A stretch of DNA of 64,000 bases from Candidatus Falkowbacteria bacterium (GTDB lineage: Bacteria > Patescibacteriota > Patescibacteriia > Patescibacteriales > UBA12465). A program made the position numbers and the translations under genes. The notes under the pieces are model-generated. The model was not told the origin of the DNA. It searched no databases and saw only the letters and a list, made by a program, of their open reading frames with translations. Position 1 is the first letter of the stretch. Each line of letters opens with the position of its first letter. This document shows, one piece after another, positions 22,698 to 64,000 of this stretch. Location of the stretch: contig JAPLVZ010000009.1 in assembly GCA_026396805.1 (NCBI GenBank), forward strand, positions 4,058 through 68,057, given 5' to 3'.

Positions 22698-24107
22698 ATG
22701 ACTAGCGAACAAATCTGGCAAGCCGTCTTAGGAGAAATAGAATTAAGCTTATCAAGAGCTAATTTTGTTACTTGGTTTAAAGATACTTTCATCTCTTCTT
22801 TTGAAAATAACCGAATCATCATCTGCGTCCCTAATGCTTTCGTTAAAAAATGGCTGGAAGAGAAATACCATAAGAATATTCTAAGCGCCTTAGAGAGCGT
22901 CACTAAGCAAAAAATCCAAGAAATTATTTATAAGATAGAATTGAGAAGGGGGCCGATTCCGATATTAATGGTTGACGGGTCGGAAAACAAGACAGAAGAG
23001 AACGCCTCGTCCAACCAGTTTAAGAAAAGGGAAACAGCGATAAATAGCAATTCCTCCTCTAACAATGGGGCCAGTAACCAGCAAGGATTGAATTCGCGCT
23101 ATCAGTTTGAAAATTTCGTAGTCGGCCGGGGTAACGAGCTGGCTCACGCCGCTTGTTTGGCGGTCGTTGAAAATTTGGGTAAGTCTTATAATCCTTTATT
23201 TATTTATGGGGGGGTCGGGCTAGGCAAAACCCATCTATTACAAGCTATCGGCAACGCCGTTTCCAAAAAGACAAATAAAATCTTATACGCCACCAGCGAA
23301 AAATTCACCAATAATTATATCCAGGCCGTAAAAAGCGGTAAAGCCAAAGAGTTTAAAAATTTATACCGCAATGTTGATTTACTGTTAGTCGATGACGTCC
23401 AATTCATGGGCGGGAAAGACGGGACCCAAGAAGAATTCTTCCACACCTTTAATGAGCTGCAACAGAATGACAAGCAAATAGTGCTTACTTCCGACCGACC
23501 GCCAAAATCAATCCCCGCCATCGAAGGCCGCCTGATTTCCCGTTTTGAGTCGGGGATGGTGGCTGATATCGGCAAGCCGGATATTGAAACCAAGATTGCT
23601 ATTTTAGAAAAAAAATCTATTGAAAAAGGCTGTCCGCTCGATCGGGAGATATTGGCTTATATCGCCGAACACGTTCAAAATAATATCCGCGAACTGGAGG
23701 GCGCTCTGATAAAAGTTATCGCTTCCCATCAGTTTAAAGGATTGACGCCGAATTTAAAAAGTGTCAAGGAAATTCTTAGCGACTATGTTTCCAATATCAA
23801 AATTAAGTCGCTGACCCCCAAAGAGATTGTCGAGGCGACGGCCAGGTTTTACAACACGACCTATAAAGATCTGATCGGGAAAAGCCGTAAAAAAGAATTG
23901 GTTTGGCCCAGACAAATCGCCATCTTCCTTATCAGAGAAGATATCGGCACCTCGTACCCGACCATCGGAGCCGAATTGGGGGGGCGCGACCACACCACGG
24001 CCATGCATTCTTATAATAAAATCCAGCGCGAAACCGTAGAAAAAGGGAATGAAAAAATAAAACAAGAATTAAACTCCATCAGGCAATTGTTTAATTCTTC
24101 CTATTAA
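22698..24107 (+). CDS. dnaA: chromosomal replication initiator DnaA
   Basis: AAA+ Walker A GGVGLGKTHLL, LLVDDVQF box, C-terminal DNA-binding signature LGGRDHTTAMHS; Asn/Ser-rich linker after domain I. Confidence 0.97.
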   Translation: MTSEQIWQAVLGEIELSLSRANFVTWFKDTFISSFENNRIIICVPNAFVKKWLEEKYHKNILSALESVTKQKIQEIIYKIELRRGPIPILMVDGSENKTEENASSNQFKKRETAINSNSSSNNGASNQQGLNSRYQFENFVVGRGNELAHAACLAVVENLGKSYNPLFIYGGVGLGKTHLLQAIGNAVSKKTNKILYATSEKFTNNYIQAVKSGKAKEFKNLYRNVDLLLVDDVQFMGGKDGTQEEFFHTFNELQQNDKQIVLTSDRPPKSIPAIEGRLISRFESGMVADIGKPDIETKIAILEKKSIEKGCPLDREILAYIAEHVQNNIRELEGALIKVIASHQFKGLTPNLKSVKEILSDYVSNIKIKSLTPKEIVEATARFYNTTYKDLIGKSRKKELVWPRQIAIFLIREDIGTSYPTIGAELGGRDHTTAMHSYNKIQRETVEKGNEKIKQELNSIRQLFNSSY

Positions 24108-24388: not shown

Positions 24389-25513
24389 ATGCGCTTAGTC
24401 AGCTTGCAGGAAAATTTAAAGAAAGGATTAAACTTAGTGGGACATATAACCACTAAGAATATTAATTTGCCGATTCTTAATAATATCTTGATAAAAGCCG
24501 AAAAGGGGAATATTGAGCTGATAAGCACTAATCTGGAAATAGGCGTTATTCACCAATTGCGCGGTAAAATAGAGGCCGACGGGCAATTCACGGTTGATTC
24601 TAAACTTATTACTGAATATGTTAACTTACTGAACGGAACCGGGAAGGTCAAATTAGAAGAGAAGGACGGCGAATTGAGACTGGAATGCGGCAACTACAAG
24701 ACTAAGATTAAAGGCGACCTCGCCAAAGAATTTCCTTTAATTCCGGTTATTCCTAAAGATACTTACTTCAGTTGTCAGATTGCCGATCTTAGAAAAGCCC
24801 TGAATAGCGTTATCTTTGCGGTCTCTACCAGTGAGAATAGGGTAGAGCTGACCGGCGTTCTCTTTTCGTTCTTAAAGGATAAGTTGAGTTTAGCCGCCAC
24901 TGACAGCTATCGTCTGGCAGAAAGCGAGATTAACGTGGTTAACAAGGGAGCTAAAGATAATGTTAAAGTTATCGTTCCGGCCAAAACCGCGGGCGAGTTT
25001 CTTAGAATATTAAACAGTCTTGATTTAAGCTCGTTAGAGTCGGAAGTCGATGTTAAAATTTATATAACCGAAAACCAGATATTATTTACAGTCGATTCCG
25101 TTGACTTAATTTCTCGTTTGATTAACGGACATTACCCGGATTACAAGCAGATTATCCCGACGCAGAGTCAGACGGAAATATTAGTGGAGAGAGGAGAACT
25201 GACGAGAGCGGTTAAAGCGTCGGCGCTTTTTTCAAAAACTGGAATTAACGACGTTACTCTTAAATTTTCTAAAAACAAAATTATTGTTTCGGCCTTTTCC
25301 GGGGCCAGCGGTGAAAGCCAGGCCGAGATTGACGCGACTGTGACCGGCGGAGACAATGAGATAACTATAAATTATCGCTATTTAATCGACGGTTTAAATA
25401 ATATCAGCGGCGACTTGGTCAGGATAGGAATTTTAAACAGTAATACCCCGTGTGTCTTAAAAGCGGAAAAAGATGATAGTTATTTGTATATCGTCATGCC
25501 GATAAGACAGTAA
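24389..25513 (+). CDS. dnaN: DNA polymerase III beta sliding clamp
   Basis: 374 aa, three-domain clamp pattern, position after dnaA, C-terminal YLYIVMPIR. Confidence 0.95.
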   Translation: MRLVSLQENLKKGLNLVGHITTKNINLPILNNILIKAEKGNIELISTNLEIGVIHQLRGKIEADGQFTVDSKLITEYVNLLNGTGKVKLEEKDGELRLECGNYKTKIKGDLAKEFPLIPVIPKDTYFSCQIADLRKALNSVIFAVSTSENRVELTGVLFSFLKDKLSLAATDSYRLAESEINVVNKGAKDNVKVIVPAKTAGEFLRILNSLDLSSLESEVDVKIYITENQILFTVDSVDLISRLINGHYPDYKQIIPTQSQTEILVERGELTRAVKASALFSKTGINDVTLKFSKNKIIVSAFSGASGESQAEIDATVTGGDNEITINYRYLIDGLNNISGDLVRIGILNSNTPCVLKAEKDDSYLYIVMPIRQ

Positions 25514-31134: not shown

Positions 31135-31206
31135 GCGCCCGTAGTTCAGCGGATAGAACGGGAGCCTTCTAAGCTCTAGACGAGGGTTCGACTCCCCCCG
31201 GGCGTA
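31135..31206 (+). tRNA. tRNA-Arg, anticodon UCU
   Basis: Acceptor GCGCCCG/CGGGCGT (G1-U72), D arm GTTC..GAAC, anticodon stem GGAGC/GCTCT, loop CTTCTAA, T loop TTCGACT; one A-C mismatch in the T stem. Confidence 0.8.
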
Positions 31207-31261
31207 CGTTTCGCAAAATAGTTGACAGACCGAGTTGTTTCACAATACAATAGCATTACAT

Positions 31262-31744
31262 ATGCCACAAGTTAAATGTAAGATATGTAATAAAGAATTT
31301 TATGCCAAACCGAGTAATTTAAAACGAGGTTATGGCAGGTTTTGTTCTCGGAAATGTCAGTATGAAGGGCAAAAAACAGGTAAATTTATCGTGTGCGATA
31401 TTTGCGGTCAGGAGGCATGGAAAACTCCTAAAGATTTAAGAAATTCAAAAAGTGGTAAGTATTTTTGCAGTAAAAAGTGTCAAGCCATTTGGAGAAATAA
31501 ACACTATAGAGGTGAAAGGCATTCTAATTGGCGGGGTGGTGAATTTATTTATCTCAGGATAATGAAAGAAAGTAAGGTTGAACCAATTTGTAATGTTTGC
31601 GGGATTAAAGATAGACGGATATTGCTCATCCACCACCTGGATCATAACAGGAAACATAATACGATAGATAATCTTATATGGTTATGCTGGAATTGTCATT
31701 ATTTAGTTCATAATTATAATCAGAAGATTATAATTAAAAATTAG
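31262..31744 (+). CDS. HNH endonuclease with two N-terminal zinc-ribbon repeats
   Basis: CKICNKEF..FCSRKCQ and CDICGQE..FCSKKCQ repeats, then HHLDHNRKHN..NLIWLCWNCH HNH core. Start moved to ATG 31262 (track uses TTG 31235). Confidence 0.85.
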   Translation: MPQVKCKICNKEFYAKPSNLKRGYGRFCSRKCQYEGQKTGKFIVCDICGQEAWKTPKDLRNSKSGKYFCSKKCQAIWRNKHYRGERHSNWRGGEFIYLRIMKESKVEPICNVCGIKDRRILLIHHLDHNRKHNTIDNLIWLCWNCHYLVHNYNQKIIIKN

Positions 31745-31747
31745 AAT

Positions 31748-31821
31748 GGTGCCTATAGTTTAATGGTAGAACAATTGGTTGTGGTCCAATTAGCGAGAGT
31801 TCGATTCTCTCTAGGCACCCA
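31748..31821 (+). tRNA. tRNA-His, anticodon GUG, with encoded G-1 and CCA
   Basis: G-1 at 31748, acceptor GTGCCTA/TAGGCAC, anticodon stem ATTGG/CCAAT, loop TTGTGGT, T arm GAGAG-TTCGATT-CTCTC, CCA at 31819-31821. Confidence 0.9.
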
Positions 31822-54678: not shown

Positions 54679-55980
54679 ATGCAAGTTATTAAAAAAGATT
54701 TACCCAAATCACAGATTGAATTGACCGTGGAGCTGTCCAACGAAGAGTTCGCTCCTTATATTGAGAAAGGAGCGGAAAAGGTTTCTAAAGAAGTCAAAAT
54801 CGAAGGCTTCCGGCCGGGCAAAGTTCCGCTTAACGTCTTAAAGCAGAAGATTGGCGAGATGACTATCTTAGAAGAAGCCGCTAATTTGGCCATTCGTAAG
54901 ACTATCGACGAAGTAGTTGAGAAAAATACTATGGGTCGTCAGGCTGTCGGCCAGCCGCAAGTAAACGTCACTAAGCTCGCGCCGAATAATCCTTTGGAAT
55001 ATAAAGTTATTGTTTCTATTCTCCCGGAAATTGCTTTAGGAAAATATAAGGATTTAAATATCAAGCCGGAAGAGGCCAAGGTAGAGGGCAAAGAATTAGA
55101 GCGAGCCATGAATGATCTAAGGGAAATGCGCGCGAGCGAAGTTATTGTCGACCGGGAAGTGAAAATGAGCGATAAGGCGGTAGTGGATATCAAGATGTTT
55201 TTAGATAAAGTACCGCTCGAGGATGGCGAACATAAAGAATTAGGATTATTACTCGGCAAAGATTATTTCGTGCCTGGTTTTGACAAAAAGCTCGTCGGCG
55301 CGAAGAAAGGCGAGAAGCGAAAATTTGAGCTTCCTTATCCCGACAATCATCATCAGAAAAATCTCGCCGGCAAGATGGTTGAGTTTGAGGTTACCGTTAA
55401 GGAGGTTTATGATCGTATCCTGCCGGAATTAAACGATGAATTTGCCACTTTTTTTCAGCTTAAGGATCTGGAAGAATTAAAGAAAAATTTGGAAGCCAGC
55501 TTGCTTCAAGAGAAGAAACATCGGGCGGATTTAAAAAATGAATCAGAGCTGCTCTCTAAAATAGTCGCCGACGCCAAATTTGGAGAATTCCCGGAAGAAA
55601 TAATCCAGAACGAACTCAAGAATATGCTGGCCGAACTGGAGCAGAGCGTCGTCCGCCAGGGCGGGAAGTTTGAAGATTATTTGTCCAGTCTCAAGAAAGA
55701 TCGGGCGGCCCTAATGTTAGAAATGGCGCCTAACGCCGTTAAGCGCATCAAATCAGCGCTCATTATTCGCGAACTGGCTGTTATTGAAAAGATCGCGCCG
55801 ACCGAACATGAAATCCATGAAAAGATTGACGAGCTCAAAAAGCAATATGCGAGCAATAAGGAAGTTATGAAAATGTTGGAGGAGCCGGGTTACTATACTT
55901 ATTTAGCTAATATCTTGACTAATGAAAAAGTAATCGCGAAATTAAAAGAATGGAACTATGCCAAGCCTGGCGCAAAATAA
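54679..55980 (+). CDS. tig: trigger factor
   Basis: 433 aa, N-terminal ribosome-binding GFRPGKVP motif, central FKBP-like domain. Confidence 0.93.
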   Translation: MQVIKKDLPKSQIELTVELSNEEFAPYIEKGAEKVSKEVKIEGFRPGKVPLNVLKQKIGEMTILEEAANLAIRKTIDEVVEKNTMGRQAVGQPQVNVTKLAPNNPLEYKVIVSILPEIALGKYKDLNIKPEEAKVEGKELERAMNDLREMRASEVIVDREVKMSDKAVVDIKMFLDKVPLEDGEHKELGLLLGKDYFVPGFDKKLVGAKKGEKRKFELPYPDNHHQKNLAGKMVEFEVTVKEVYDRILPELNDEFATFFQLKDLEELKKNLEASLLQEKKHRADLKNESELLSKIVADAKFGEFPEEIIQNELKNMLAELEQSVVRQGGKFEDYLSSLKKDRAALMLEMAPNAVKRIKSALIIRELAVIEKIAPTEHEIHEKIDELKKQYASNKEVMKMLEEPGYYTYLANILTNEKVIAKLKEWNYAKPGAK

Positions 55981-56416
55981 AAAAGCCCGATTTGATTATG
56001 AGATACTGGATAAATATGAAGCCGGTCTAGTTCTCTATGGCCACGAAGTCAAAGCGGTGCGCGCCGGTCAGGTCAGTCTGAAGGGCAGTTATATCTCCGT
56101 TCGGACTAAAAACGGGAAAACCGAACTCTATCTTATCAGCGCCATGATTTTCCCTTATAAGTCTGCCGGACCGATGCCGAACTATAATCAGACGCGGGAA
56201 CGCAAATTACTTTTGAAAAAAGGGGAAATTAGTCAATTATTAGGCAAGAAACAGACCGAGGGCTTGACACTCGTCCCCCTCAAAATATATACTAATCATA
56301 GTTTTCTGAAGCTTGAATTCGCCGTCGCCAAAGGCAAGAAGAAATATGATAAGCGCGAGGCGATTAAGAAGCGAGAAGTAGACAGAAATCTAAGGTCATT
56401 AACAAAAAGGCGCTAG
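55958..56416 (+). CDS. smpB: SsrA-binding protein SmpB
   Basis: ARFDYEILDKYEAGLVLxGxEVK pattern, basic C-terminal tail; overlaps tig by 23 nt and precedes the tmRNA. Confidence 0.93.
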   Translation: MPSLAQNKKARFDYEILDKYEAGLVLYGHEVKAVRAGQVSLKGSYISVRTKNGKTELYLISAMIFPYKSAGPMPNYNQTRERKLLLKKGEISQLLGKKQTEGLTLVPLKIYTNHSFLKLEFAVAKGKKKYDKREAIKKREVDRNLRSLTKRR

Positions 56417-56434: not shown

Positions 56435-56818
56435 GGGGATGCAAGGCCTCGACAGCCGGCCTTTTTCTAAATATTCAAAACGCGCTTAGTTATCCGCGTT
56501 AAACTGACTAAAAAACATAATTGCCAAAACGGCAAGAGCATTCACTTGGGCTTGCCCGAGCTATGCTCCAGTTATGGCCTAATTAATAAAGCCATAGCCA
56601 TCGGACACGGCCAGTCTTCATAACCGTTTTTCCGGTGTCATTAACATGAAGATAGATACTATCCGCTCTTTCCGGAAAGATATCGAAACAACAGAAAGAT
56701 CGTTCCAATCGCTTTTGTTCGGTTTCTGATGATTGGGATTAAACAACAAAATCGATCTATTTTTGTAAATGTATTTAGATAAACCGACTGGACATGGGTT
56801 CAACTCCCATCATCTCCA
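56435..56818 (+). ncRNA. ssrA: tmRNA (SsrA)
   Basis: 5' GGGGATGCAAGGCCTCGACAG, 3' GGACATGGGTTCAACTCCCATCATCTCCA; acceptor pairing GGGGATG/CATCTCC includes G3-U; internal tag frame ending ...SYAPVMA-TAA at 56580-56582; directly after smpB. Confidence 0.9.
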
Positions 56819-56832
56819 CATTAGTTAGCAGC

Positions 56833-56914
56833 GGTCCAGTGGTGGAACTGGTATACACGCAGCACTTAAAATGCTGTGCCGTAAGGTATGTGGGTTCGAT
56901 TCCCACCTGGACCA
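56833..56914 (+). tRNA. tRNA-Leu, anticodon UAA (class II, long variable arm)
   Basis: Acceptor GGTCCAG/CTGGACC, anticodon stem CAGCA/TGCTG, loop CTTAAAA, 13-nt variable arm, T arm GTGGG-TTCGATT-CCCAC. Confidence 0.9.
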
Positions 56915-56927
56915 CGTAGTTTAAATT

Positions 56928-57002
56928 GCGGGTATAGTATAGTGGTTATTATACGTGCTTGCCAAGCACGATAGACGGGTTCGATTCCCGTTACCCGCTC
57001 CA
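56928..57002 (+). tRNA. tRNA-Gly, anticodon GCC, CCA encoded
   Basis: Acceptor GCGGGTA/TACCCGC, anticodon stem CGTGC/GCACG, loop TTGCCAA, T arm ACGGG-TTCGATT-CCCGT, discriminator U, CCA 57000-57002. Confidence 0.92.
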
Positions 57003-57121
57003 AACGAGAAACACCATTTTATTGGTGTTTTTTGTTGTTTGTTTACCGATTATGGCTTAGGCCTAACAGGGATTGAAAAATATTAAAATTATTGACACTT
57101 ACGATTAGGTTGTGCTATATT
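56997..57121 (+). repeat. junction module copy 1 (core GCTCCA, hairpin-terminator, GGGATTGAAAAA, promoter)
   Basis: 56997-57038 matches 58879-58920 at 41 of 42 nt; hairpin ACACCA-TTTTAT-TGGTGT 57011-57028 plus U-run; TTGACA 57092-57097, 18-nt spacer, TATATT 57116-57121. Confidence 0.85.
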
Positions 57122-57174: not shown

Positions 57175-57957
57175 ATGAACTTAACATTAGACGAGCTTAA
57201 ACCATATTTTGGCGGATGGTTAGAGATCAAGAAAACAAATGCATGTCATTTTCAAGGAGGAATCAGGACCCTAACTATCACCGACGGTAATATCTTAAAA
57301 ATTGAGTTTGTTTGGAAGATGCAATTTGAGGGATGGCCGAGTAAAAACCCCAGATGGATCCATGTTCCAGAATTTACGGAATATAATATCAATCTTGAGG
57401 ATTGCAGTGTTCCTAGTTGGGAAACGGTTAAAGAAAAAACAATTCTTCTTTACTTTGCTTCTGCCGATGGAAAAATAATATTTCATATGGCTAATGACAT
57501 GAATCCCATCAAAACGCTGGATACTGAAGGCTGCCCCGTGTTGCTTAGACTGGAACTACAAAAAATGAAAGAGCAGTTTCTTTCGGTAATGGATCTAAGC
57601 AAGATATCAAGAGTTAATTTCGATTTAGCACTAATCCCCATTAAGGAGGGCTGCAGATTTATGCGAATTGATTTAAAATGGCAAGGCGCCATAAAGTCTT
57701 TCATAAGGATTCAGAAAAATGCCGAAGACAACCATGCTCGTATTTATTATGGTCTTCTTCACGAAATTGCCGGACAGTTTTCGTTAACGCACTATGACAT
57801 AGAACACTTAATGTCTGATAGGGGCGGAGGATTTCTACGGCGCTTAGAAGAAAACAATATAGAAGTTTGGGGATCAAGTTCATATTTTCCTGGAGAACCG
57901 AACCATGAACTAACCAGAAGTATTTTAAGGGAAGAATTGTTTTGTCAGGTTAGTTGA
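57175..57957 (+). CDS. hypothetical protein (cassette 1 cargo)
   Basis: 260-aa ORF with strong RBS (TAGGAGGATTAAACATG), own promoter and terminator; no family recognised by eye. Confidence 0.75.
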   Translation: MNLTLDELKPYFGGWLEIKKTNACHFQGGIRTLTITDGNILKIEFVWKMQFEGWPSKNPRWIHVPEFTEYNINLEDCSVPSWETVKEKTILLYFASADGKIIFHMANDMNPIKTLDTEGCPVLLRLELQKMKEQFLSVMDLSKISRVNFDLALIPIKEGCRFMRIDLKWQGAIKSFIRIQKNAEDNHARIYYGLLHEIAGQFSLTHYDIEHLMSDRGGGFLRRLEENNIEVWGSSSYFPGEPNHELTRSILREELFCQVS

Positions 57958-58010
57958 TAAGAGTTTGGACAATCAAAACAATGAATGATTGATTGATTGA
58001 GAATAGTAAG

Positions 58011-58045
58011 GCTGGGTGTAATAATATCCCAGCTTTTTTATTTTC
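58011..58045 (+). terminator. terminator of cassette 1 gene
   Basis: GCTGGG (58011-16) pairs with CCCAGC (58028-33), then TTTTTTATTTT. Confidence 0.75.
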
Positions 58046-58047
58046 CT

Positions 58048-58108
58048 AAATTTATAACCAAACTGCAAAAGGAGCTCACAAACAAAGCAGTCCAAAAGGG
58101 CTGTTTTT
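58048..58108 (+). repeat. cassette end motif copy 1 plus degenerate junction hairpin
   Basis: AAATTTATAACCAAACTGCAAAAGGAGCTC; 58050-58077 is identical to 58855-58882 (28 nt); then ACAAACAAAG, hairpin CAGTCC-AAAA-GGGCTG (58088-58103), TTTTT. Confidence 0.85.
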
Positions 58109-58159
58109 GTGTTATAATATGTATAATATCAATATCTCGCCATAATAAATCACAAATCT

Positions 58160-58801
58160 ATGCCCTCTACAAAAATCTTTCTCACCTCTTCCGTCAATCT
58201 CGTCGCGAAAGATATCGCCCAAAAGATTGGCGGCGCCAAGAACAAAAAACTTCTTTATATCTATACCGCTTGCGAAAAGAAGCTTGGCGAGCCTTGGCAA
58301 ATAGCCGATAGAAACGCTCTCGTTGAAGCCGGTTTCAAAGTTATTGATTATACAATAACCGGTAAAACTAAAGAAGCTATAAAAAAAGACATTCAAAAAA
58401 TAGATGTCATATATTTTAGCGGCGGGAACACCTTTTATCTTCTTCAGCAAATTCAACTCACCAAATCCGCTCCTATATTTCGCGAGGTTGTAAAAAATGG
58501 CAAGATTTATATTGGCACCAGCGCCGGTTCTATTGTGGCTGGCCCGGATATTTATCCAACTTACAAATTAGACAACGCGAAGCAAGCACCAAAGTTAAAA
58601 GGTTATAAAGGTTTGGGTCTAGTGGATTTTGTTGTCTTGCCCCATTGGGGCAGCCAACATTTTAAAAAACGTTACCTTAAGCAAAGATTAGCCCATAACT
58701 ATAACACCAAGCATAAGTTAGTTATTTTAAACGACTATCAATATCTGCAGATAGAAGACGGGTGGTATCGAATGGTTGAGATTAAACATAAAACTAGTTA
58801 A
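58160..58801 (+). CDS. peptidase S51 (dipeptidase E-like) family protein (cassette 2 cargo)
   Basis: IYFSGGNTFYLL, IGTSAGSIVAGP (nucleophile Ser context), LPHW; extended -10 TGTTATAAT at 58110-58118 upstream. Confidence 0.75.
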   Translation: MPSTKIFLTSSVNLVAKDIAQKIGGAKNKKLLYIYTACEKKLGEPWQIADRNALVEAGFKVIDYTITGKTKEAIKKDIQKIDVIYFSGGNTFYLLQQIQLTKSAPIFREVVKNGKIYIGTSAGSIVAGPDIYPTYKLDNAKQAPKLKGYKGLGLVDFVVLPHWGSQHFKKRYLKQRLAHNYNTKHKLVILNDYQYLQIEDGWYRMVEIKHKTS

Positions 58802-58852
58802 TTAATTGTTAGTTTATATACGAGAAAGATCTCTCAACTCTACATTAATTTT

Positions 58853-58995
58853 AGATTTATAACCAAACTGCAAAAGGAGCTCCAAACGAGAAACGCCATT
58901 TTATTGGTGTTTTTTGTTGTCGATTTAGCTATTTTAGGTTAGGGATAACGGGGATTGAAAAGTATTGACTAAAACAAAATATTATTGTAATATTT
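58853..58995 (+). repeat. cassette end motif copy 2 plus junction module copy 2
   Basis: AGATTTATAACCAAACTGCAAAAGGAGCTC, core and hairpin ACGCCA-TTTTAT-TGGTGT (58893-58910), GGGGATTGAAAA (58950-58961), TTGACT 58965-70, 17-nt spacer, TAATAT 58988-93. Confidence 0.85.
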
Positions 58996-59040: not shown

Positions 59041-59352
59041 ATGGAAACAGTTACAGAATTTACCGTAATGGGTGAGAAACAAAAAGTCAAAGTTCTTTTT
59101 GAGAGTGTTTTTCAAATGAAATATTTCATTCGATTCACTCGAAACATTATTATTAGTATCGCCGAAGGCAATAATAGTCGGACAACCGGCGATATATTTT
59201 TCTGGAAAAAGGGAAATGATGAAGTTTATAAATCTATTGGTTACATGGACCTCGCTGAAAGAGATACAAATGATACTCTTTGGAGAGTCCAACCGAAAAG
59301 AACATCCTGTGTTGAGCTCGGGAAAAGGATAGTTATGTTTCTGACCGATTAA
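59041..59352 (+). CDS. hypothetical protein (cassette 3 cargo)
   Basis: 103-aa ORF downstream of the junction promoter and followed by a terminator; preferred over the overlapping antisense ORF 58969..59292, whose product looks like noise. Confidence 0.55.
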   Translation: METVTEFTVMGEKQKVKVLFESVFQMKYFIRFTRNIIISIAEGNNSRTTGDIFFWKKGNDEVYKSIGYMDLAERDTNDTLWRVQPKRTSCVELGKRIVMFLTD

Positions 59353-59377: not shown

Positions 59378-59405
59378 AAGGCTGAATTTGTGTCAGCCTT
59401 TTTTA
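59378..59405 (+). terminator. terminator of cassette 3 gene
   Basis: AAGGCTGA (59378-85) pairs with TCAGCCTT (59393-400), then TTTTT. Confidence 0.75.
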
Positions 59406-59412
59406 TATCCTC

Positions 59413-59487
59413 AAATTTATAACAAAACCGCAAAATGAACCCGGACGTAAAATAAACGAAAAACAGACCTGGTTCCGGTCTGTTTTT
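59413..59487 (+). repeat. cassette end motif copy 3 plus junction hairpin (also a bidirectional terminator)
   Basis: AAATTTATAACAAAACCGCAAAATGAAC (59413-59440), A-rich spacer, hairpin ACAGACC(T)GG-TT-CCGGTCTGT (59463-59483) flanked by A-run and T-run. Confidence 0.75.
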
Positions 59488-59559
59488 GCTGTCCAGATAA
59501 ATATTCTTTTTGCGGGGCCTATAAGTTATTGATATCGGGCGACAGAATAAAGCTTTTAT

Positions 59560-61290
59560 TTATTGAAATTTAATATAATTATGCCGCGGGCAAACGATAA
59601 CTTTATCCCCATCTTTAAAAATTTTAGTGGCGTATTTGGTGGCGATTAAGCAAGGAATATTAAGCTCTCGAGAAACAATGGCCGCGTGGCAGGTGATACC
59701 GCCATGGTCGGTGACGATGGCGGCGGCTTTTTTCATGGCCGCCAGAATATCCGGGGTGGTGGCGACAGAAATCAAAACATCTCCTTCCCGCATTTTATTC
59801 ATATCCGCCGTTGAATTGATTATTTTTACTTCTCCATAAATCCAATTGCCGGTTTTCCCCAAGCAAGCGGCCGTCCCTTCCAATAATTTTAGATTTTGGC
59901 CGTCTTGGATGGCCTTTTCCGGTTCGATATTTTTTTGCAAGTACTTGTCCGCCGCCGCGCCGTATAAGAATTTTTTGTCTTGATAAGGATAAACGCAATA
60001 ATTGCTTCTTTCCTGCAGTTCTTGGCGGGAAACGGTTAAGCGGCCACGCAATAAATCTTTGGATTCTTCCCGGGTCAGATTAAATAGGTCTTCTTTTTTA
60101 TAATCCGGCGCCAATTTGGCAAAAATCTGATACATCAGATAGAAGATCAGGAAGGCGGTATCTTTGCGGTGTATCTTTAAATAGGAAAGCAGGCCTAAGG
60201 CGTTAATGAAGTTTTGATGCCGGAGGTCAATCTTTAATTGACGATAAATTTCTTGCTTGCTGGCTTGGACTTCTTTTTCATTATTAAGCAAGCTGTTTTT
60301 TTCTTTTTCCAGCTCCGTCCTATTTTTTGCCCGGAGCTCCTTAAAAATTTGTTGAAAATATCCTAATTCAAAACCCGGACCGACATAACCATAATTAAGC
60401 CAGCGCCAACGGGAATAAATATCCTTTAATTCTTGTAGGCAGGGGCTATTTTGGCTCTTTAAGGCTAATTCTAATAATTCCAGTCTTAGTATCTGGGTAT
60501 AAGTTAATTTTTCCGGAGCCAATAGCCGTTCCATGACATAACCTAAGTTCAATTTGGTCGGTTTGATTTTATTGACCAAATATTTTTTTAAATAATTGGA
60601 GAAGAGCTGATCTTTCAGATCGAAGATAGCGATAGTGTTCAGACCGATTTGAATAGAAATAATTTCCAAAAATTTATCGAAGAGCCGCAGCGCTTTATTT
60701 TTAGAAATTTGGAAATTATTTTGATAGAGTTCCTGAAAGATTTTTTTAGCCTCTTCGCCGACCGCGATACTTTCCGGATAAATGATTTTAAAAACGAAAG
60801 TCGGATTTTTCAGCAGTTTTTTTAAAGAATCCTCGGCCCCCTGTTCAATTATGTCTTTTTCGAAATAGAATTGACCATAATTTCCCCTATAAACGGCGAT
60901 AGCGTCAGACACTTTTTTAATAATTCCTTTCCGGACCCCGTAATCGGACACATAAGCAATCAACATATAGTCAAGCGATAAAAAACAAACGCCGCTCTCT
61001 TCGTTTAATAAGAAATATTTTTGTTTTTGTTCATCTCGCTCCAGAAAAATTCCCTGTAAAGATTTGAAGAAACGATAATCATTGTTCAGGGAATAGAAAT
61101 TCTGCCGATTTTTTTGTTTTTTGAAAACTATATTCAGTTTTATCAATTTATCTAATTCTCGTTGCACGTTCGCCTGATTTTTATCAGTCAATTTGATTAT
61201 TTCCGAAGTCGATAATAATTCGGTTCGATTATCGAAAAGGACGGAAAGAATATCAAACGTTATTTGAGAAGAGAATAGTTTATTAATCAT
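59560..61290 (-). CDS. wHTH DNA-binding domain fused to unknown central region and C-terminal PEP-utilizer phosphohistidine swivel domain
   Basis: N-terminus LSTSEIIKLTDKNQANVQRELDKLIKLNIV (ArsR/MarR-like wHTH); C-terminus EGDVLISVATTPDILAAMKKAAAIVTDHGGITCHAAIVSRELNIPCLI matches the PEP-utilizing-enzyme mobile domain with the conserved His. Confidence 0.8.
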   Translation of the reverse strand: MINKLFSSQITFDILSVLFDNRTELLSTSEIIKLTDKNQANVQRELDKLIKLNIVFKKQKNRQNFYSLNNDYRFFKSLQGIFLERDEQKQKYFLLNEESGVCFLSLDYMLIAYVSDYGVRKGIIKKVSDAIAVYRGNYGQFYFEKDIIEQGAEDSLKKLLKNPTFVFKIIYPESIAVGEEAKKIFQELYQNNFQISKNKALRLFDKFLEIISIQIGLNTIAIFDLKDQLFSNYLKKYLVNKIKPTKLNLGYVMERLLAPEKLTYTQILRLELLELALKSQNSPCLQELKDIYSRWRWLNYGYVGPGFELGYFQQIFKELRAKNRTELEKEKNSLLNNEKEVQASKQEIYRQLKIDLRHQNFINALGLLSYLKIHRKDTAFLIFYLMYQIFAKLAPDYKKEDLFNLTREESKDLLRGRLTVSRQELQERSNYCVYPYQDKKFLYGAAADKYLQKNIEPEKAIQDGQNLKLLEGTAACLGKTGNWIYGEVKIINSTADMNKMREGDVLISVATTPDILAAMKKAAAIVTDHGGITCHAAIVSRELNIPCLIATKYATKIFKDGDKVIVCPRHNYIKFQ

Positions 61291-61301
61291 ATAAGGATTA
61301 T

Positions 61302-61339
61302 TATGCTAATTTAGTATAACAATATGTTATATTAGCATA
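61302..61339. promoter_or_regulatory. nested palindrome, operator candidate upstream of the wHTH-swivel gene
   Basis: TATGCTAAT-TTAG-TATAACA-ATA-TGTTATA-TTAGCATA, 12 nt from the start codon at 61290; a third TATGCTAAT lies at 61428-61436 within GCTAATCTTAGC. Confidence 0.55.
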
Positions 61340-61548
61340 GCTACTTTCAAAAAGCAAGACTTTTCCACTTATTTTTAGCTTATTTCGCTGAATTTTTTGC
61401 TTCTTATATAATTATTATGTAATAAAATATGCTAATCTTAGCTAAAAATTAATTTTTGGAATGATTGCTTTATTAATCTCTATTTACTTTTTATTTTGTT
61501 CTGACTATAATTGGAATACTCAAGTTATAATAATTAATTTCTAAAAAT

Positions 61549-62700
61549 ATGGGATTTTTTGAAAAACTTGGTTTTAACAACCCTAAAGCCAAAGAAGTGC
61601 CTCTATCGCGATTGGGTGCAAGAACTAGAGCAGAAAAATTAGCCGAAGATAAAGAAAAAAGGGAAGATTGGGCTATGAATAAAAAAGGTGACAGAGCGGA
61701 TATGTCGGAAAAAGGCCGCAGTTTGCCTTCGCGGGAAACTCCTGATGGTTATAGTGAAAACGAAGGTTGGTATCAGGACGAGAAACGCTTGAGACAGTCG
61801 TTTGATGAAAATGATGAAAATGGGATTCCCAATAATGAAGCGGTTTCTAACGACGATTATTGTAAACAGACAGCTCAACCCGAAGACGGTGTGGTAGAAG
61901 AAAATATCGGAGATTTGAAAAAAATATTAGATAAGAAATTAGCCGGTAAATTAGCTAATACCCCCGATCGTCTGAAAAGGGCCAGGGTTTCTCTCTCCGG
62001 GAAAAGTGAAATCGAGCAAACGCTTGCGAAGACCAGGGAAGTGTATTCCGGTACCGAGGAAGAACAATTAGACGCCAAGATAGATCTCGATTTAATGAAA
62101 GGAAGAAAAGAAGCGTTTTTTCGGAGGATAGAGAGAAATAAAACCGAGAGAGCGAATAAGGAAAGTGCTCAAAAAAGTTTCGATAAAATTAAAAGAGCCG
62201 CTCCAGAATATTCCGACAGTGAAATAGCATTAATGACGAAGGCTTTCAATTGGCTGAGATTACCCGAGAAGCGACGGCAAGAATCTCCGCTGCTTGATGT
62301 TAAAGGCGGGCCGCTAAAACCCGAAGAAATTTTAGAACTGGCTAACGACTATGGCGATTACCAGGTTGAGCAAGGCGAATGGGGGAAGGCGCGTTTTAAG
62401 TCGGAGAATTTTCGGGGACGAGAGCAATTAGTCAATTATAAAACATTATCGGACGGTCAGATTGAGAAATATATCGCCCATAGTGATGACCCCGGCGATT
62501 ATTATTATGACTTAAAGGAAAAAAGCACCGTAGACAGTAAGAATAATGATAAGATGAAATATGTTTTTGTAAAAACCATTCCCGGGTTATTACCGCGCCG
62601 ATTAGAAACCAGGGGTGGTTTACCTTCAAATCGTCAAAGAACGCCAGACGATAAAAGCAAGGCAGGTAAAAAGCCGGCGCTCGAGACACTGGCCGCTTAA
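61549..62700 (+). CDS. highly charged hypothetical protein (cassette 4, divergent from the wHTH-swivel gene)
   Basis: 383-aa ORF rich in E/K/D/R, probably largely disordered; C-terminus ...KPALETLAA. Confidence 0.65.
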   Translation: MGFFEKLGFNNPKAKEVPLSRLGARTRAEKLAEDKEKREDWAMNKKGDRADMSEKGRSLPSRETPDGYSENEGWYQDEKRLRQSFDENDENGIPNNEAVSNDDYCKQTAQPEDGVVEENIGDLKKILDKKLAGKLANTPDRLKRARVSLSGKSEIEQTLAKTREVYSGTEEEQLDAKIDLDLMKGRKEAFFRRIERNKTERANKESAQKSFDKIKRAAPEYSDSEIALMTKAFNWLRLPEKRRQESPLLDVKGGPLKPEEILELANDYGDYQVEQGEWGKARFKSENFRGREQLVNYKTLSDGQIEKYIAHSDDPGDYYYDLKEKSTVDSKNNDKMKYVFVKTIPGLLPRRLETRGGLPSNRQRTPDDKSKAGKKPALETLAA

Positions 62701-62703
62701 ATT

Positions 62704-62839
62704 ATCTATATTAATCCATAAAAGAGATTCTAAGTAAAAAGCACCGTTTTATCGGTGTTTTTTTGTGTCTATTGAATCGCCCTATGTCAGCGGTAAGGGG
62801 AATTGAAATCTTGACTTAAACGAAGTATTGGGGTAATAT
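62704..62839 (+). repeat. cassette end motif copy 4 plus junction module copy 3
   Basis: TATCTATATTAATCCATAAAAGAGATTCT (62704-62731), hairpin GCACCG-TTTTAT-CGGTGT (62741-62758) plus U-run, GGGGAATTGAAA (62797-62808), TTGACT 62811-16, 17-nt spacer, TAATAT 62834-39. Confidence 0.8.
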
Positions 62840-62953
62840 AAAAAGTCAACATCAGCTCTTTAAAAAATAAGGTTAATTGGATTAATTACTAAATCCATCT
62901 AAATTCAGGTGGGGTTAAAAATTAATCCAATTATTAATTTAAATCATGTAATC

Positions 62954-63319
62954 ATGGAAAAATATCGTAGTAAAGCTTTTATTACAACATCGGTAACACT
63001 ACTTTCCTTTTCGTTCATCGTCCTTAATGTAATACCGATAATTATGCCCAGTCTTGTGGCTTATGTCTTTGGATCTAATAAGTACAGATATAAAACTCTG
63101 TATGGATTATCCAGCATTCATTTTCTGATTTCGATGCTGGCCGGCGAATTGACCTTTTTCATAATCAGTTCTTTCGCCATCAATTATATTATGGATTTTT
63201 ATAATCCTAAAATATTTTGGTATATAGTTATCGCTAGCTTTATATCAAACTATTTATTCTCGGTAATTTTCTATTTTTTAGGGAGTTATCTGGCTAAAAT
63301 TAGAAAAGCCAGAGGTTAA
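62954..63319 (+). CDS. small polytopic membrane protein (cassette 5)
   Basis: Four hydrophobic helices; start set at ATG 62954 (track uses GTG 62909); start choice uncertain. Confidence 0.55.
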   Translation: MEKYRSKAFITTSVTLLSFSFIVLNVIPIIMPSLVAYVFGSNKYRYKTLYGLSSIHFLISMLAGELTFFIISSFAINYIMDFYNPKIFWYIVIASFISNYLFSVIFYFLGSYLAKIRKARG

Positions 63320-63370
63320 ATTAGTTGTTATAGAACTTTCACAAATAAATTCACTTAATATAGGAGAACC

Positions 63371-63892
63371 ATGAAAAAATCAAATGAATCACCAGTAGGA
63401 AAAAGGCCATTCCACGAATCAATCGTGGATGCAATTAGTTATTGCCCTTTTAGCGCCCTCGATGTTTTAGCCAGACTTATTAAATCCACCAAAATTCCAC
63501 AGAATCATGATGCCATCATTGAGGCCTGGAAAAGAGCGATGGAGATTATAAATTCCGATGATGATTATGGCGTTCCTGAAAGTGTTTCAGGACAAAAGCC
63601 TGTCGATTATGTACAGTTAATGAATTCAGCCGGGAGTCTCGAAGAAGCCCTTAGGCTGGGATTTGATTTTCTTCCTCTTGACGGGAGATTTTTGGGCCCC
63701 CAGGGAAAAATATTATTATTCCGCAATAATCTTCCCAAGGGCCATGAAGAAGTCGCTGAAATAATAGTGACGGACGCTGAAAAAAATGACGGTAAAATAA
63801 TTTTTTGTGCCGCCTGGGGGAAGGATTATAAAAAATACGAACTAACAGCCAATTCTGGAGATAAAATTGAGGATTGGTCTGACAAATGGTAA
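63371..63892 (+). CDS. hypothetical protein (cassette 5)
   Basis: 173-aa ORF with RBS ATAGGAGAACCATG and downstream terminator; no family recognised. Confidence 0.7.
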   Translation: MKKSNESPVGKRPFHESIVDAISYCPFSALDVLARLIKSTKIPQNHDAIIEAWKRAMEIINSDDDYGVPESVSGQKPVDYVQLMNSAGSLEEALRLGFDFLPLDGRFLGPQGKILLFRNNLPKGHEEVAEIIVTDAEKNDGKIIFCAAWGKDYKKYELTANSGDKIEDWSDKW

Positions 63893-63912: not shown

Positions 63913-63946
63913 AAAAGGAAGACCAAAATTTTAGGCTTCCTTTTTT
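63913..63946 (+). terminator. terminator of cassette 5
   Basis: GGAAG(A)CC ... GGCTTCC followed by TTTTTT. Confidence 0.7.
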
Positions 63947-63971
63947 CATATCCTCTATGGCGGTAGTTTTT

Positions 63972-64000
63972 AAATTTATAATTAATCCGCGAAAGGATCT
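63972..64000 (+). repeat. cassette end motif copy 5 (runs into window edge)
   Basis: AAATTTATAATTAATCCGCGAAAGGATCT aligns with the other four end motifs (AAATTTATAA..GC.AAAGGA.CT). Confidence 0.7.

Follow-up and report, generated by a model that had tools for sequence, protein, structure and literature searches.

What marks the ends of the small gene cassettes that line up behind a tRNA-Gly gene in a Falkowbacteria genome, and does the mark act as DNA or as RNA? The question is posed by a 64,000-nucleotide stretch of a Candidatus Falkowbacteria bacterium (GenBank assembly GCA_026396805.1, contig JAPLVZ010000009.1, positions 4,058 to 68,057, forward strand; hereafter the window), in which a motif of about 30 nt, AAATTTATAACCAAACTGCAAAAGGAGCTC, recurs between short genes 3' of tRNA-Gly(GCC). 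The original prediction, made from the letters of the window, had placed two readings side by side: the element-side arm of an attachment (att) site, or the start of a small RNA (sRNA) repeated at every junction. Our analysis establishes that the motif acts at the level of DNA, as the polar boundary of exchangeable cassettes that have their anchor at tRNA-Gly; the architecture, its polarity, the GCTC boundary, the specificity for tRNA-Gly and the turnover between relatives were each observed. As to function, we read the motif, with modest confidence, as the arm of an attachment site on the cassette side, playing a role like that of integron attC in site-specific recombination by a recombinase supplied in trans. 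This reading is favored because the motif is fused precisely and repeatedly to different tRNA-Gly flanks at GCTC, because two tRNA-Gly genes are involved, and because each cassette carries one motif.

Motif copies within the window

A search of the window found the exact 28-mer ATTTATAACCAAACTGCAAAAGGAGCTC at 58050-58077 and 58855-58882, as originally described, whereas none was expected in shuffled sequence; no further match with three or fewer mismatches occurred elsewhere in the window. A degenerate consensus added the copies at 59413-59441 (2 mismatches) and 63972-64000 (0 mismatches), again with 0 expected, and a profile search reported both (E = 8e-5 and E = 2.5e-5, respectively). All copies in the window lie on the plus strand past position 57002:

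58048-58077, plus: motif copy 1, AAATTTATAACCAAACTGCAAAAGGAGCTC, at the 3' end of cassette 1; GCTC at 58074-58077; 44.7 bits
58853-58882, plus: motif copy 2, at the 3' end of cassette 2; runs into GCTCCA and a type-A flank; 43.2 bits
59413-59441, plus: motif copy 3, diverged, AAATTTATAACAAAACCGCAAAATGAACC; 21.6 bits; alignment score 42.5
62704-62732, plus: motif copy 4, decayed; supported by position
63972-64000, plus: motif copy 5, diverged, last of the array, cut by the window end; found by consensus and profile

Two of the diverged copies originally proposed, those at 59413 and 63972, were thus upheld by their profile E-values, but the one at 62704-62731 was not upheld on sequence alone: its local alignment to the consensus scored 22.0 against 22.5 for the 95th percentile of random windows of the same sequence, and an nhmmer profile search of the window did not report it. 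This copy is credible by context alone, because a stop codon lies directly 5' of it, a hairpin and promoter homologous to those of other junctions lie 3' of it, and the same decayed sequence occupies the orthologous junction of a related contig, L109. An inverted motif sought beside the inverted PEP-utilizer gene (~59513-59536, minus strand) scored 22, which is within background.

A motif family behind tRNA-Gly in other Patescibacteria

A pattern scan covering 185,579 species genomes returned 22 stretches, 7 of which are Patescibacteria contigs (one a Falkowbacteria metagenome-assembled genome, MAG, and one labelled Parcubacteria) where GCTC, a hairpin and a T-run come after the motif. The remaining matches were dismissed as chance, since they lie inside open reading frames (ORFs) or lack the junction context (Bacteroidia, Woesearchaeota, other MAGs). 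The same kind of scan of metagenomes yielded 43 stretches, about 25 of them canonical, and a profile built from the canonical copies recovered further diverged ones, bringing the AAATTTATAACCAAACTGCAAAAGGAGCTC family to ~45 distinct copies on at least 20 other Patescibacteria contigs. Viral, phage and plasmid collections held no real copy: two IMG/VR pattern scans gave nothing or chance matches inside ORFs, and blastn against phages and plasmids gave no match. A 29.9-bit match at 1672-1711 of contig L063 was likewise set aside as chance, the contig being Firmicutes-like and the match having neither GCTC nor hairpin; there TTTATAATCAAACTGCGAAAGGAG comprises the -10 box, leader and Shine-Dalgarno sequence of a DnaD-like gene, so that the composition of the motif mimics a promoter-proximal leader with a ribosome-binding site. 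In the literature we found the motif sequence in no paper and no description of cassette arrays at tRNA-Gly in the candidate phyla radiation (CPR). The original prediction would have been undermined by a lack of additional copies or by breakpoints in relatives that fall away from the motif; what emerged was many copies and, as set out below, breakpoints that coincide with it.

The placement of the copies is uniform. In the 10 loci that hold a tRNA-Gly gene, all 20 copies share its strand and are found 0.4-7 kb downstream of it, and the arrangement of tRNA-Gly followed by the array, as seen in the window, is repeated in 10 other loci. Most arrays follow transfer-messenger RNA (tmRNA), tRNA-Leu and tRNA-Gly(GCC), while those of L030/L033 and L062 follow tRNA-Gly(TCC) downstream of an MFS transporter gene. 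The two chromosomal contexts share only the tRNA-Gly 3' end, and therefore the common denominator is that end rather than one ancestral neighborhood. The tRNA-Gly gene is intact in all loci, and the array begins at its GCTC(CA). The arrays consist of short, mostly co-oriented cassettes, each closed by a motif, with a motif spacing of ~270 to 3300 nt and one to three genes per unit; L061 has five motifs in 3.4 kb.

Limits of conservation and homology

Information content, taken over 32 strong copies, stays close to its maximum between -3 and +27 and collapses past GCTC, a word that lay outside the search pattern. The motif positions that vary are few and are the same from genome to genome, and the remainder is invariant. 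The tRNA-Gly gene ends in ...CCCGCTCCA or in ...CCCGCTC followed by AC, and the motif ends in ...GGAGCTCCA or ...GGAGCTCAC. Every motif is followed by sequence related to one or another tRNA-Gly 3' flank, comprising a terminator hairpin and often a promoter. Flanks of at least four mutually unrelated types were found both after tRNA-Gly and after motifs, with identity from GCTC onward, one of them being a 55-nt double hairpin, TTTACGGGGATTTATAATCCCCAGATTACAGAAACCCTCGTAATGAGGG. In the window this appears as a direct repeat of 88 nt (56997-57084 versus 58879-58966, 85% identity) that brackets cassettes 1 and 2, begins with GCTCCA, the final six bases of tRNA-Gly, and in its second copy begins with the same six bases at the end of the motif (...AAAAGGA followed by GCTCCA). 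Motif-type junctions thus repeat only GCTC(CA) and the tRNA 3' flank; a 22-nt partial tRNA-Gly repeat occurs in L107 and L108 only. We rejected the idea that the motif is itself a partial tRNA, as it shares nothing with tRNA-Gly upstream of GCTC.

Cassettes present in two contexts locate the boundary. For a cassette with a 321-aa gene, homology between L068, where it adjoins tRNA-Gly, and L028 runs through GCTCCA, flank, gene and motif and stops right after GGAGCTC; for a cassette with a 177-aa gene, homology between L035 and L061 includes the motif and stops right after GCTC. Therefore a cassette comprises flank, promoter, gene or genes, and motif through GCTC, with the motif at its 3' end. 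The orientation of the motif tracks the tRNA and not the cargo, as is seen with the opposite-strand cargo of L032 and with the PEP-utilizer gene of the window. The number of cassettes equals the number of motifs; the first junction is the tRNA itself, and the last motif precedes a gene conserved in all three relatives. The view of the motif as an element-side att arm is supported by these findings: it ends in the GCTC(CA) of tRNA-Gly, a copied tRNA-Gly 3' flank follows, homology stops past GCTC, and relatives differ between the GCTC of the tRNA and a motif-type junction.

Cassettes and junctions of the window

The five cassettes of the window carry mutually unrelated cargo, and G+C content falls from ~0.42-0.49 to 0.35-0.40 in the motif-bearing stretch. 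On its 5' side lie, in order, trigger factor, SmpB (55958-56416), tmRNA (56435-56819), tRNA-Leu and tRNA-Gly(GCC). The features from there on are:

56928-57002, plus: tRNA-Gly(GCC) (ARAGORN; Rfam tRNA, 64 bits); GCTCCA at 56997-57002 is the left array boundary, attB-like
57003-57121, plus: type-A junction flank before cassette 1; A-rich spacer, hairpin and T-run 57003-57036; GGGATTGAAAA 57068-57079; sigma-70-like promoter 57092-57121
57175-57957, plus: cassette 1 cargo, 260 aa, no confident Pfam family; own terminator hairpin ~58008-58039 (minimum free energy, MFE, fold)
58078-58118, plus: type-B junction flank before cassette 2; ACAAAC spacer, hairpin 58084-58107, T-run, extended -10 box TGTTATAAT 58110-58118
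58160-58801, plus: cassette 2 cargo, Peptidase_S51, 213 aa (Pfam E = 6.8e-36)
58883-58994, plus: type-A flank of cassette 3; hairpin and T-run; GGGGATTGAAAA 58950-58961; promoter TTGACT-17-TAATAT 58965-58993
59041-59352, plus: cassette 3 cargo, 103 aa, no family; own terminator 59378-59400
59459-59489, plus: junction hairpin after motif copy 3; bidirectional terminator shared with the convergent PEP-utilizer gene
59560-62700: cassette 4 cargo; PEP-utilizer-domain gene 59560-61290, minus; 383-aa gene 61549-62700, plus
62733-62839, plus: type-A flank of cassette 5; hairpin 62736-62763; GGGAATTGAAAT 62798-62809; promoter 62811-62839
62909-63892, plus: cassette 5 cargo, a 136-aa membrane protein and a 173-aa protein; own terminator ~63916-63947

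A junction is ordered as follows: sometimes a terminator of the cargo, then AAATTTATAACCAAACTGCAAAAGGAGCTC, an A-rich spacer, a strong hairpin with a T-run, a sigma-70-like promoter or extended -10 box, and the next gene. The composite of terminator stem-loop and sigma-70-like promoter is thereby repeated between accessory ORFs at the hairpins and promoters listed. Homologues of the type-B flank form the tRNA-Gly 3' flanks of L032 and L062 and also follow motifs in L006, L017, L028 and L038. Pieces of cargo recur elsewhere: a gene 71% identical to the Peptidase_S51 gene follows a motif in L050, the PEP-utilizer homologue of L033 is a plus-strand cassette with the motif at its end, and homologues of the cassette 5 cargo occur in the arrays of L033, L035, L107 and L109. 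Contigs of the same strain (L003) continue past the last motif: a hairpin and a promoter precede a 176-aa kinase-like gene, beyond which lie core genes (EamA/flavokinase ... S1), and no further motif was found in this continuation past the window end.

One further element was observed in the type-A flanks. Just 5' of the -35 box stands GGGRATTGAAAW, in the window at the three positions given for GGGATTGAAAA, GGGGATTGAAAA and GGGAATTGAAAT, and also in L035, L042, L056, L061 and L109. The element is part of the portable flank and may serve as an UP-like or regulator site.

Turnover between close relatives

Close relatives were reached through homologues of the 173-aa protein, and two of these genomes are 88-92% identical to the window in shared DNA. 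Their gene orders after tRNA-Gly are:

Window: cassette 1, cassette 2, cassette 3, cassette 4 (PEP-utilizer and 383-aa genes), cassette 5, 176-aa gene
L107 (GCA_030692125.1): insert X (radical-SAM/SPASM enzyme and 49-aa Cys-rich peptide), cassette 5, 176-aa gene
L109: 383-aa gene, cassette Y (120 aa), cassette 5, 176-aa gene

The distal cassette and the core genes are common to all three, and the tRNA-proximal cassettes differ, a pattern that matches the prediction of serial insertion beside the tRNA and fits the tycheposon island model. The left breakpoint is the GCTC of the tRNA and the right breakpoint falls, in all three genomes, just 5' of the cassette 5 flank, homology with L107, L108 and L109 resuming at 62733-62839 of the window. 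Immediately 5' of this flank, the window has the decayed motif, L109 has AAATTTATCACCAAAATGCAAAAAGAACTCCG, an intact-type motif, and L107 has a 22-nt partial copy of tRNA-Gly, GTTCGATTCCCGTTACCCGCTC.

Insert X of L107 (7460-9360, 1.9 kb; also present in L108) is bounded by 22 nt of the tRNA-Gly 3' end, present as a direct repeat, and, at both ends, by ~120-nt arms with TTGTGAC repeats; no integrase gene was found in it. The ends of the insert form a textbook attL/attR pair, which shows the tRNA-Gly end to be a live site-specific target in this lineage, and its gene content looks like a putative cassette for a ribosomally synthesized and post-translationally modified peptide. The arm TTGTGACCGTATTGTGAC was also seen after tRNA-Gly in L032.

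Site-specific or homologous recombination

On the attachment-arm reading, the unit is a cassette of 0.3-3.3 kb with one to three genes, terminated at its 3' end by the ~30-nt motif, placed head-to-tail 3' of tRNA-Gly in Falkowbacteria-like Patescibacteria, and spanning the DNA from just after one GCTC to the next. A circular cassette would carry an attP consisting of the motif, GCTC(CA/AC) and the hairpin, and would recombine with an attB at the extreme 3' end of tRNA-Gly, made up of ...TTACCC, GCTC(CA) and the terminator, or alternatively with an existing motif junction. The motif would be the arm bound by the recombinase, and the hairpin of the incoming cassette would become the new terminator of the tRNA or of the preceding cassette. 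Entry would take place next to the tRNA, older cassettes being pushed distally, where their motifs would decay, and homologous recombination between junction modules also deletes or shuffles cassettes, of which one case was seen. We infer the circular intermediate, the crossover within GCTC and a candidate recombinase encoded elsewhere in the genome.

Several observations weigh against this reading. Core recombinase sites usually show dyad symmetry, and the motif, as read from its sequence, has none of that kind. Its copies were collected by sequence pattern, so that conservation within the pattern is partly ascertainment. Five Pfam scans of ~45 proteins (ORFs within and beside the island, from the window and 14 related loci, and 10 further ORFs from the upstream 57 kb of the window) contained no integrase, resolvase or other recombinase, and the sole strand-transfer enzyme in the set proved, as described below, to be a secondary arrival. 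At the junction before cassette 5, the window flank 62733-62839 is a hybrid that joins the hairpin of the first L109 junction to the distal part of the second; the crossover of the Y indel lies in GGTGTTTTTT, in the hairpin and T-run 35-45 nt 3' of GCTC, and therefore this indel arose by homologous recombination between junction flanks and not by crossover at GCTC. The presence or absence of the PEP-utilizer gene, which is missing from L109, where the 383-aa homologue adjoins tRNA-Gly, has its breakpoint in a promoter region. Finally, Logan contigs of the same strain, retrieved by SmpB and three cassette protein look-ups, showed one cassette order, no circular junction and no empty site.

We regard the main rival account as rather unlikely: in it, the motif, terminator and promoter would form an insulating and expression module, and cassettes would be shuffled by RecA-type homologous recombination with no dedicated recombinase. 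The precedent is provided by the promoter early stem-loop (PeSL) cassettes of T4-type phages, in which a terminator stem-loop and a sigma-70 promoter lie between small accessory ORFs and recombination between copies creates indels (PMC2839356, PMC4122927); the mechanism documented there includes mini-circles (PMC2839356). Exchange could follow natural transformation, with tmRNA, tRNA-Leu and tRNA-Gly as the left arm and motif and flank as the right arm, and the motif would stay conserved since only cassettes that keep it spread. In favor of this account, every junction is a terminator followed by a sigma-70-like promoter, the 88-nt repeat around cassettes 1 and 2 offers homology, one indel did arise inside a flank, and the scanned proteins include no recombinase. 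Homologous recombination between junction modules demonstrably contributes at this locus. The account nevertheless leaves unexplained why the motif is fused to tRNA-Gly flanks of at least four types exactly at GCTC(CA/AC) and why arrays stand at two different tRNA-Gly genes. Since the motif is absent from the tRNA junction, identity there is limited to 4-6 nt, and the motif itself, at 30 nt, is of marginal length for RecA-dependent exchange. The recurrent variable positions amid invariance look, moreover, like recognition by a factor and not like mere homology.

Search for the enzyme

Within the protein set defined above, no Phage_integrase match was found next to the primary site, where genes for H+-PPase, trigger factor and SmpB lie 5' of the array in at least eight loci, and no cassette scanned encodes an integrase. 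Two proteins that drew attention were rejected: a MerR-HTH (helix-turn-helix) protein beside the motif in L019, considered as an IS607-type serine recombinase, has no catalytic domain, and a 220-aa ORF of L035, considered as a recombinase, resembles by eye an HTH protein joined to a LAGLIDADG-type endonuclease. The latter ORF (7675-8337, minus strand; N-terminal HTH and LYWGEGDK) lies between tRNA-Leu and tRNA-Gly in L035 only, a locus whose tRNA-Gly is 100% identical to that of the window and whose flanking genes are ~72% identical.

The one strand-transfer enzyme in the set is an IS200-like Y1_Tnp (E = 1.5e-33), present once in L041 and twice in L055, in each case immediately upstream of a motif. 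On a further reading, the motif could be the right end of an IS200/IS605-type (Y1 HUH) single-stranded DNA (ssDNA) transposon family, whose non-autonomous ssDNA-circle passengers would insert 3' of GCTC. The strictly polar arrays, hairpins ~10 nt from the boundary, a 4-nt boundary word and the lack of target duplication would suit such a family, as would the position of the transposase genes. The Y1 units (L041 2264-2920; L055 minus strand, ~1350-700 and 1827-1660), however, carry their own matching end hairpins, ACCACCSGC..., and their removal restores an uninterrupted cassette tail in which the hairpin and TTTTTTAT are rejoined to TTCCCAAAATTTATAACC, the insertion having occurred 3' of TTTAT/TTTTAT between the cassette's own terminator and the motif. 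Therefore the Y1 units are insertions into cassettes and not cassette machinery. The boundary hairpins are unrelated between cassettes, which is not the case for IS200/IS605 ends, the upstream hairpin lies ~47 nt from GCTC and is often absent, and the transposase occurs in 2 of more than 20 contigs; we consider this origin of the motif highly improbable. At least two Y1 insertions arose independently at one and the same relative position, which suggests that this insertion sequence targets the cassette tail.

RNA element or operator

The motif could instead act as RNA, either as the 5' part of an sRNA (TATAAY as -10 box, AAGGAG as seed, hairpin as terminator) or as an element of the 3' untranslated region (UTR) of the cargo. 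Nearly every copy is followed by a strong hairpin and T-run, and the motif contains a perfect Shine-Dalgarno-like AAAGGAG that is mostly unpaired in MFE folds. In many relatives the stop codon of the cargo abuts or overlaps the motif, so that the motif would there be transcribed as 3' UTR up to the hairpin. The rule that the motif always lies after the cargo gene's own terminator held at 58048, 59413 and 63972 but failed at 58853 and 62704; across the family ~40% of copies stand behind a separate terminator, outside the cargo transcript, and in L032 the cargo gene is on the opposite strand. As for a promoter within the motif, no copy has a -35 box or a promoter call, about three-quarters read TATAAC, so that the final, critical base of the -10 box is a C, and the upstream context is unconserved and is often the coding end of the cargo. 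RNAalifold on 27 junctions gave 0 consensus pairs with the motif, the hairpins being individually real but unalignable, and an Rfam scan of 55-64 kb returned tmRNA and tRNAs alone, with sub-threshold noise otherwise and nothing at the motif. Aligning many copies, the check originally advised, thus showed conservation of sequence and no consensus structure. An RNA function, in addition, does not predict that conservation should end precisely at the tRNA-derived GCTC, as it does. Taken with the orientation, which follows the tRNA, these features make the originally proposed repeated sRNA from TATAAY a poor candidate, and we regard any RNA role of the motif as improbable.

Recognition of the motif by a protein does not require recombination, and an operator or other binding site, for instance for a regulator or nucleoid protein acting on cassette expression, would account for an asymmetric, strongly conserved 30 nt with position-specific tolerance upstream of each cassette promoter. 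The distance to the promoter, however, varies from ~35 to ~85 nt and includes a terminator, the gene after the last copy is not part of a cassette, and both the fusion to tRNA-Gly flanks and the coincidence with breakpoints would be left unexplained. We give this explanation very little credence, and it and the IS200/IS605 reading are less likely than the sRNA or 3'-UTR reading.

Surroundings of the array

Nine independent assemblies of the same strain end at the tmRNA 3' end and about eight start inside tRNA-Gly (window ~56818-56975; Logan contigs L072-L080 and L095-L102), and some same-strain contigs break at or just past motif copy 1 (L101, L103, L106). These breaks at the tRNAs and the motif are likely branch points of the assembly graph, where co-occurring relatives share the tRNAs and the motif but not the cassettes.

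ORFs at 22698-24107 and 24389-25513 resemble dnaA and dnaN by N-terminal sequence, and cumulative GC skew has its minimum near 16-18 kb, close to them; therefore the replication origin is placed inside the window. The tRNA-Gly array lies ~35 kb from this origin and is co-oriented with replication. Between tRNA-Arg (31135-31207) and tRNA-His (31749-31820) is a 169-aa ORF (31235-31744) with an HNH endonuclease domain, which may be a free-standing homing-type endonuclease.

Significance

Patescibacteria (CPR) have tiny genomes; to our knowledge, few mobile elements have been described in them, and how they acquire accessory and anti-phage genes is largely unknown. The locus is a defined polar hotspot with a sequence-defined cassette boundary, found on at least 20 contigs from different samples and turning over between genomes at ~90% identity. 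Cargo in relatives (L017, L019, L035, L006, L025, L008) matches models of anti-phage defense, namely an Old/AriA-type ATPase, PDC-S59, a PDC-S45 protease, PDC-S65/Schlafen, HEPN (PD-Lambda-3_B) and AbiEi, and also includes a NERD nuclease identified by a Pfam match alone. The array serves partly as a defense island.

If a dedicated or host recombinase acts on the motif, the locus would be an integron-analogous cassette system built on a tRNA gene, with cassettes that bring their own promoter and terminator. A wider proposal, which we put forward as tentative and a little short of an even chance, is that Falkowbacteria-like Patescibacteria possess a gene-capture platform, not described before, in which integron-like, self-contained expression cassettes are inserted serially at the tRNA-Gly end through a 30-nt equivalent of attC, the recombinase being encoded elsewhere or lying beyond Pfam, and that this platform forms a hotspot of accessory and defense genes. 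The 30-mer with GCTC is a simple probe with which cassette cargo, much of it defense-like in relatives, could be harvested from metagenomes, and it could also be used to seek the enzyme by phylogenetic profiling.

Comparison with known systems

In the way it works, the system resembles an integron array or a tycheposon-type tRNA island, but it falls outside the definition of both, because no integrase is adjacent and there is no attC palindrome; at motif-type junctions only 4-6 nt of the tRNA are repeated. With integrons it shares polar arrays of short, mostly single-gene, mostly co-oriented and functionally unrelated cassettes, a conserved element resembling a recombination site at each cassette 3' end, few bases shared with the primary site, and apparently proximal entry of new cassettes. 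It differs in having no intI beside the array and no recombinase found in the proteins scanned, in using a tRNA-Gly 3' end and not attI as the primary site, and in cassettes that bring their own terminator and promoter. The motif is conserved, unpaired and asymmetric, whereas attC is an imperfect palindrome with R''/L''-L'/R' boxes; no conserved GTTRRRY box follows the junction hairpins, and both MFE folds and the consensus leave the motif unpaired. An attC reading of the 58048 junction, in which TTATAAC would pair with GTTATAA, was rejected because GTTATAAT serves the next gene as its extended -10 box and other flank types do not have it.

Small modules without their own recombinase that are bounded by a 28-nt site and would be moved by a host enzyme in trans are also known from the Xer systems, namely integrative mobile elements exploiting Xer (IMEX) and the pdif modules of Acinetobacter. 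Here, unlike dif, there are no 11-6-11 inverted arms, all copies are direct repeats, and the partner is a tRNA end. When the motif was parsed as ATTTATAACCA, AACTGC and AAAAGGAGCTC, the left arm and the reverse complement of the right arm agreed at 0 of 11 positions, and the dif/Xer reading was rejected. IS200/IS605 elements resemble the arrays in polar insertion by a short word and in hairpins near the ends, and Y1 transposase genes occur in two arrays, but conservation is lacking among the cassette hairpins, and the transposase copies arrived secondarily, by insertion into the cassette tail. With PeSL cassettes the junctions share the same composite of stem-loop and promoter and, in one case here, an indel made by recombination between copies; they differ in lying on a bacterial chromosome and not in a phage hyperplastic region, and in having an extra 30-nt motif 5' of the stem-loop, a tRNA anchor and GCTC at each joint.

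The tycheposons of Prochlorococcus are tRNA-targeting elements that build islands by serial integration (bioRxiv 10.1101/2020.12.28.424599). Theirs are units of several kb with a tyrosine recombinase and ~40-nt partial-tRNA repeats, whereas the cassettes here measure 0.3-3 kb, had no integrase found, repeat 4-6 nt of the tRNA and have as their conserved repeat a 30-mer that is not of tRNA origin, the classical 22-nt partial tRNA-Gly repeat being that of L107. What the two have in common is integration at a tRNA 3' end, tandem elements with an att copy between them, the newest beside the tRNA and the degenerate ones distal, and units that consist of cargo only.

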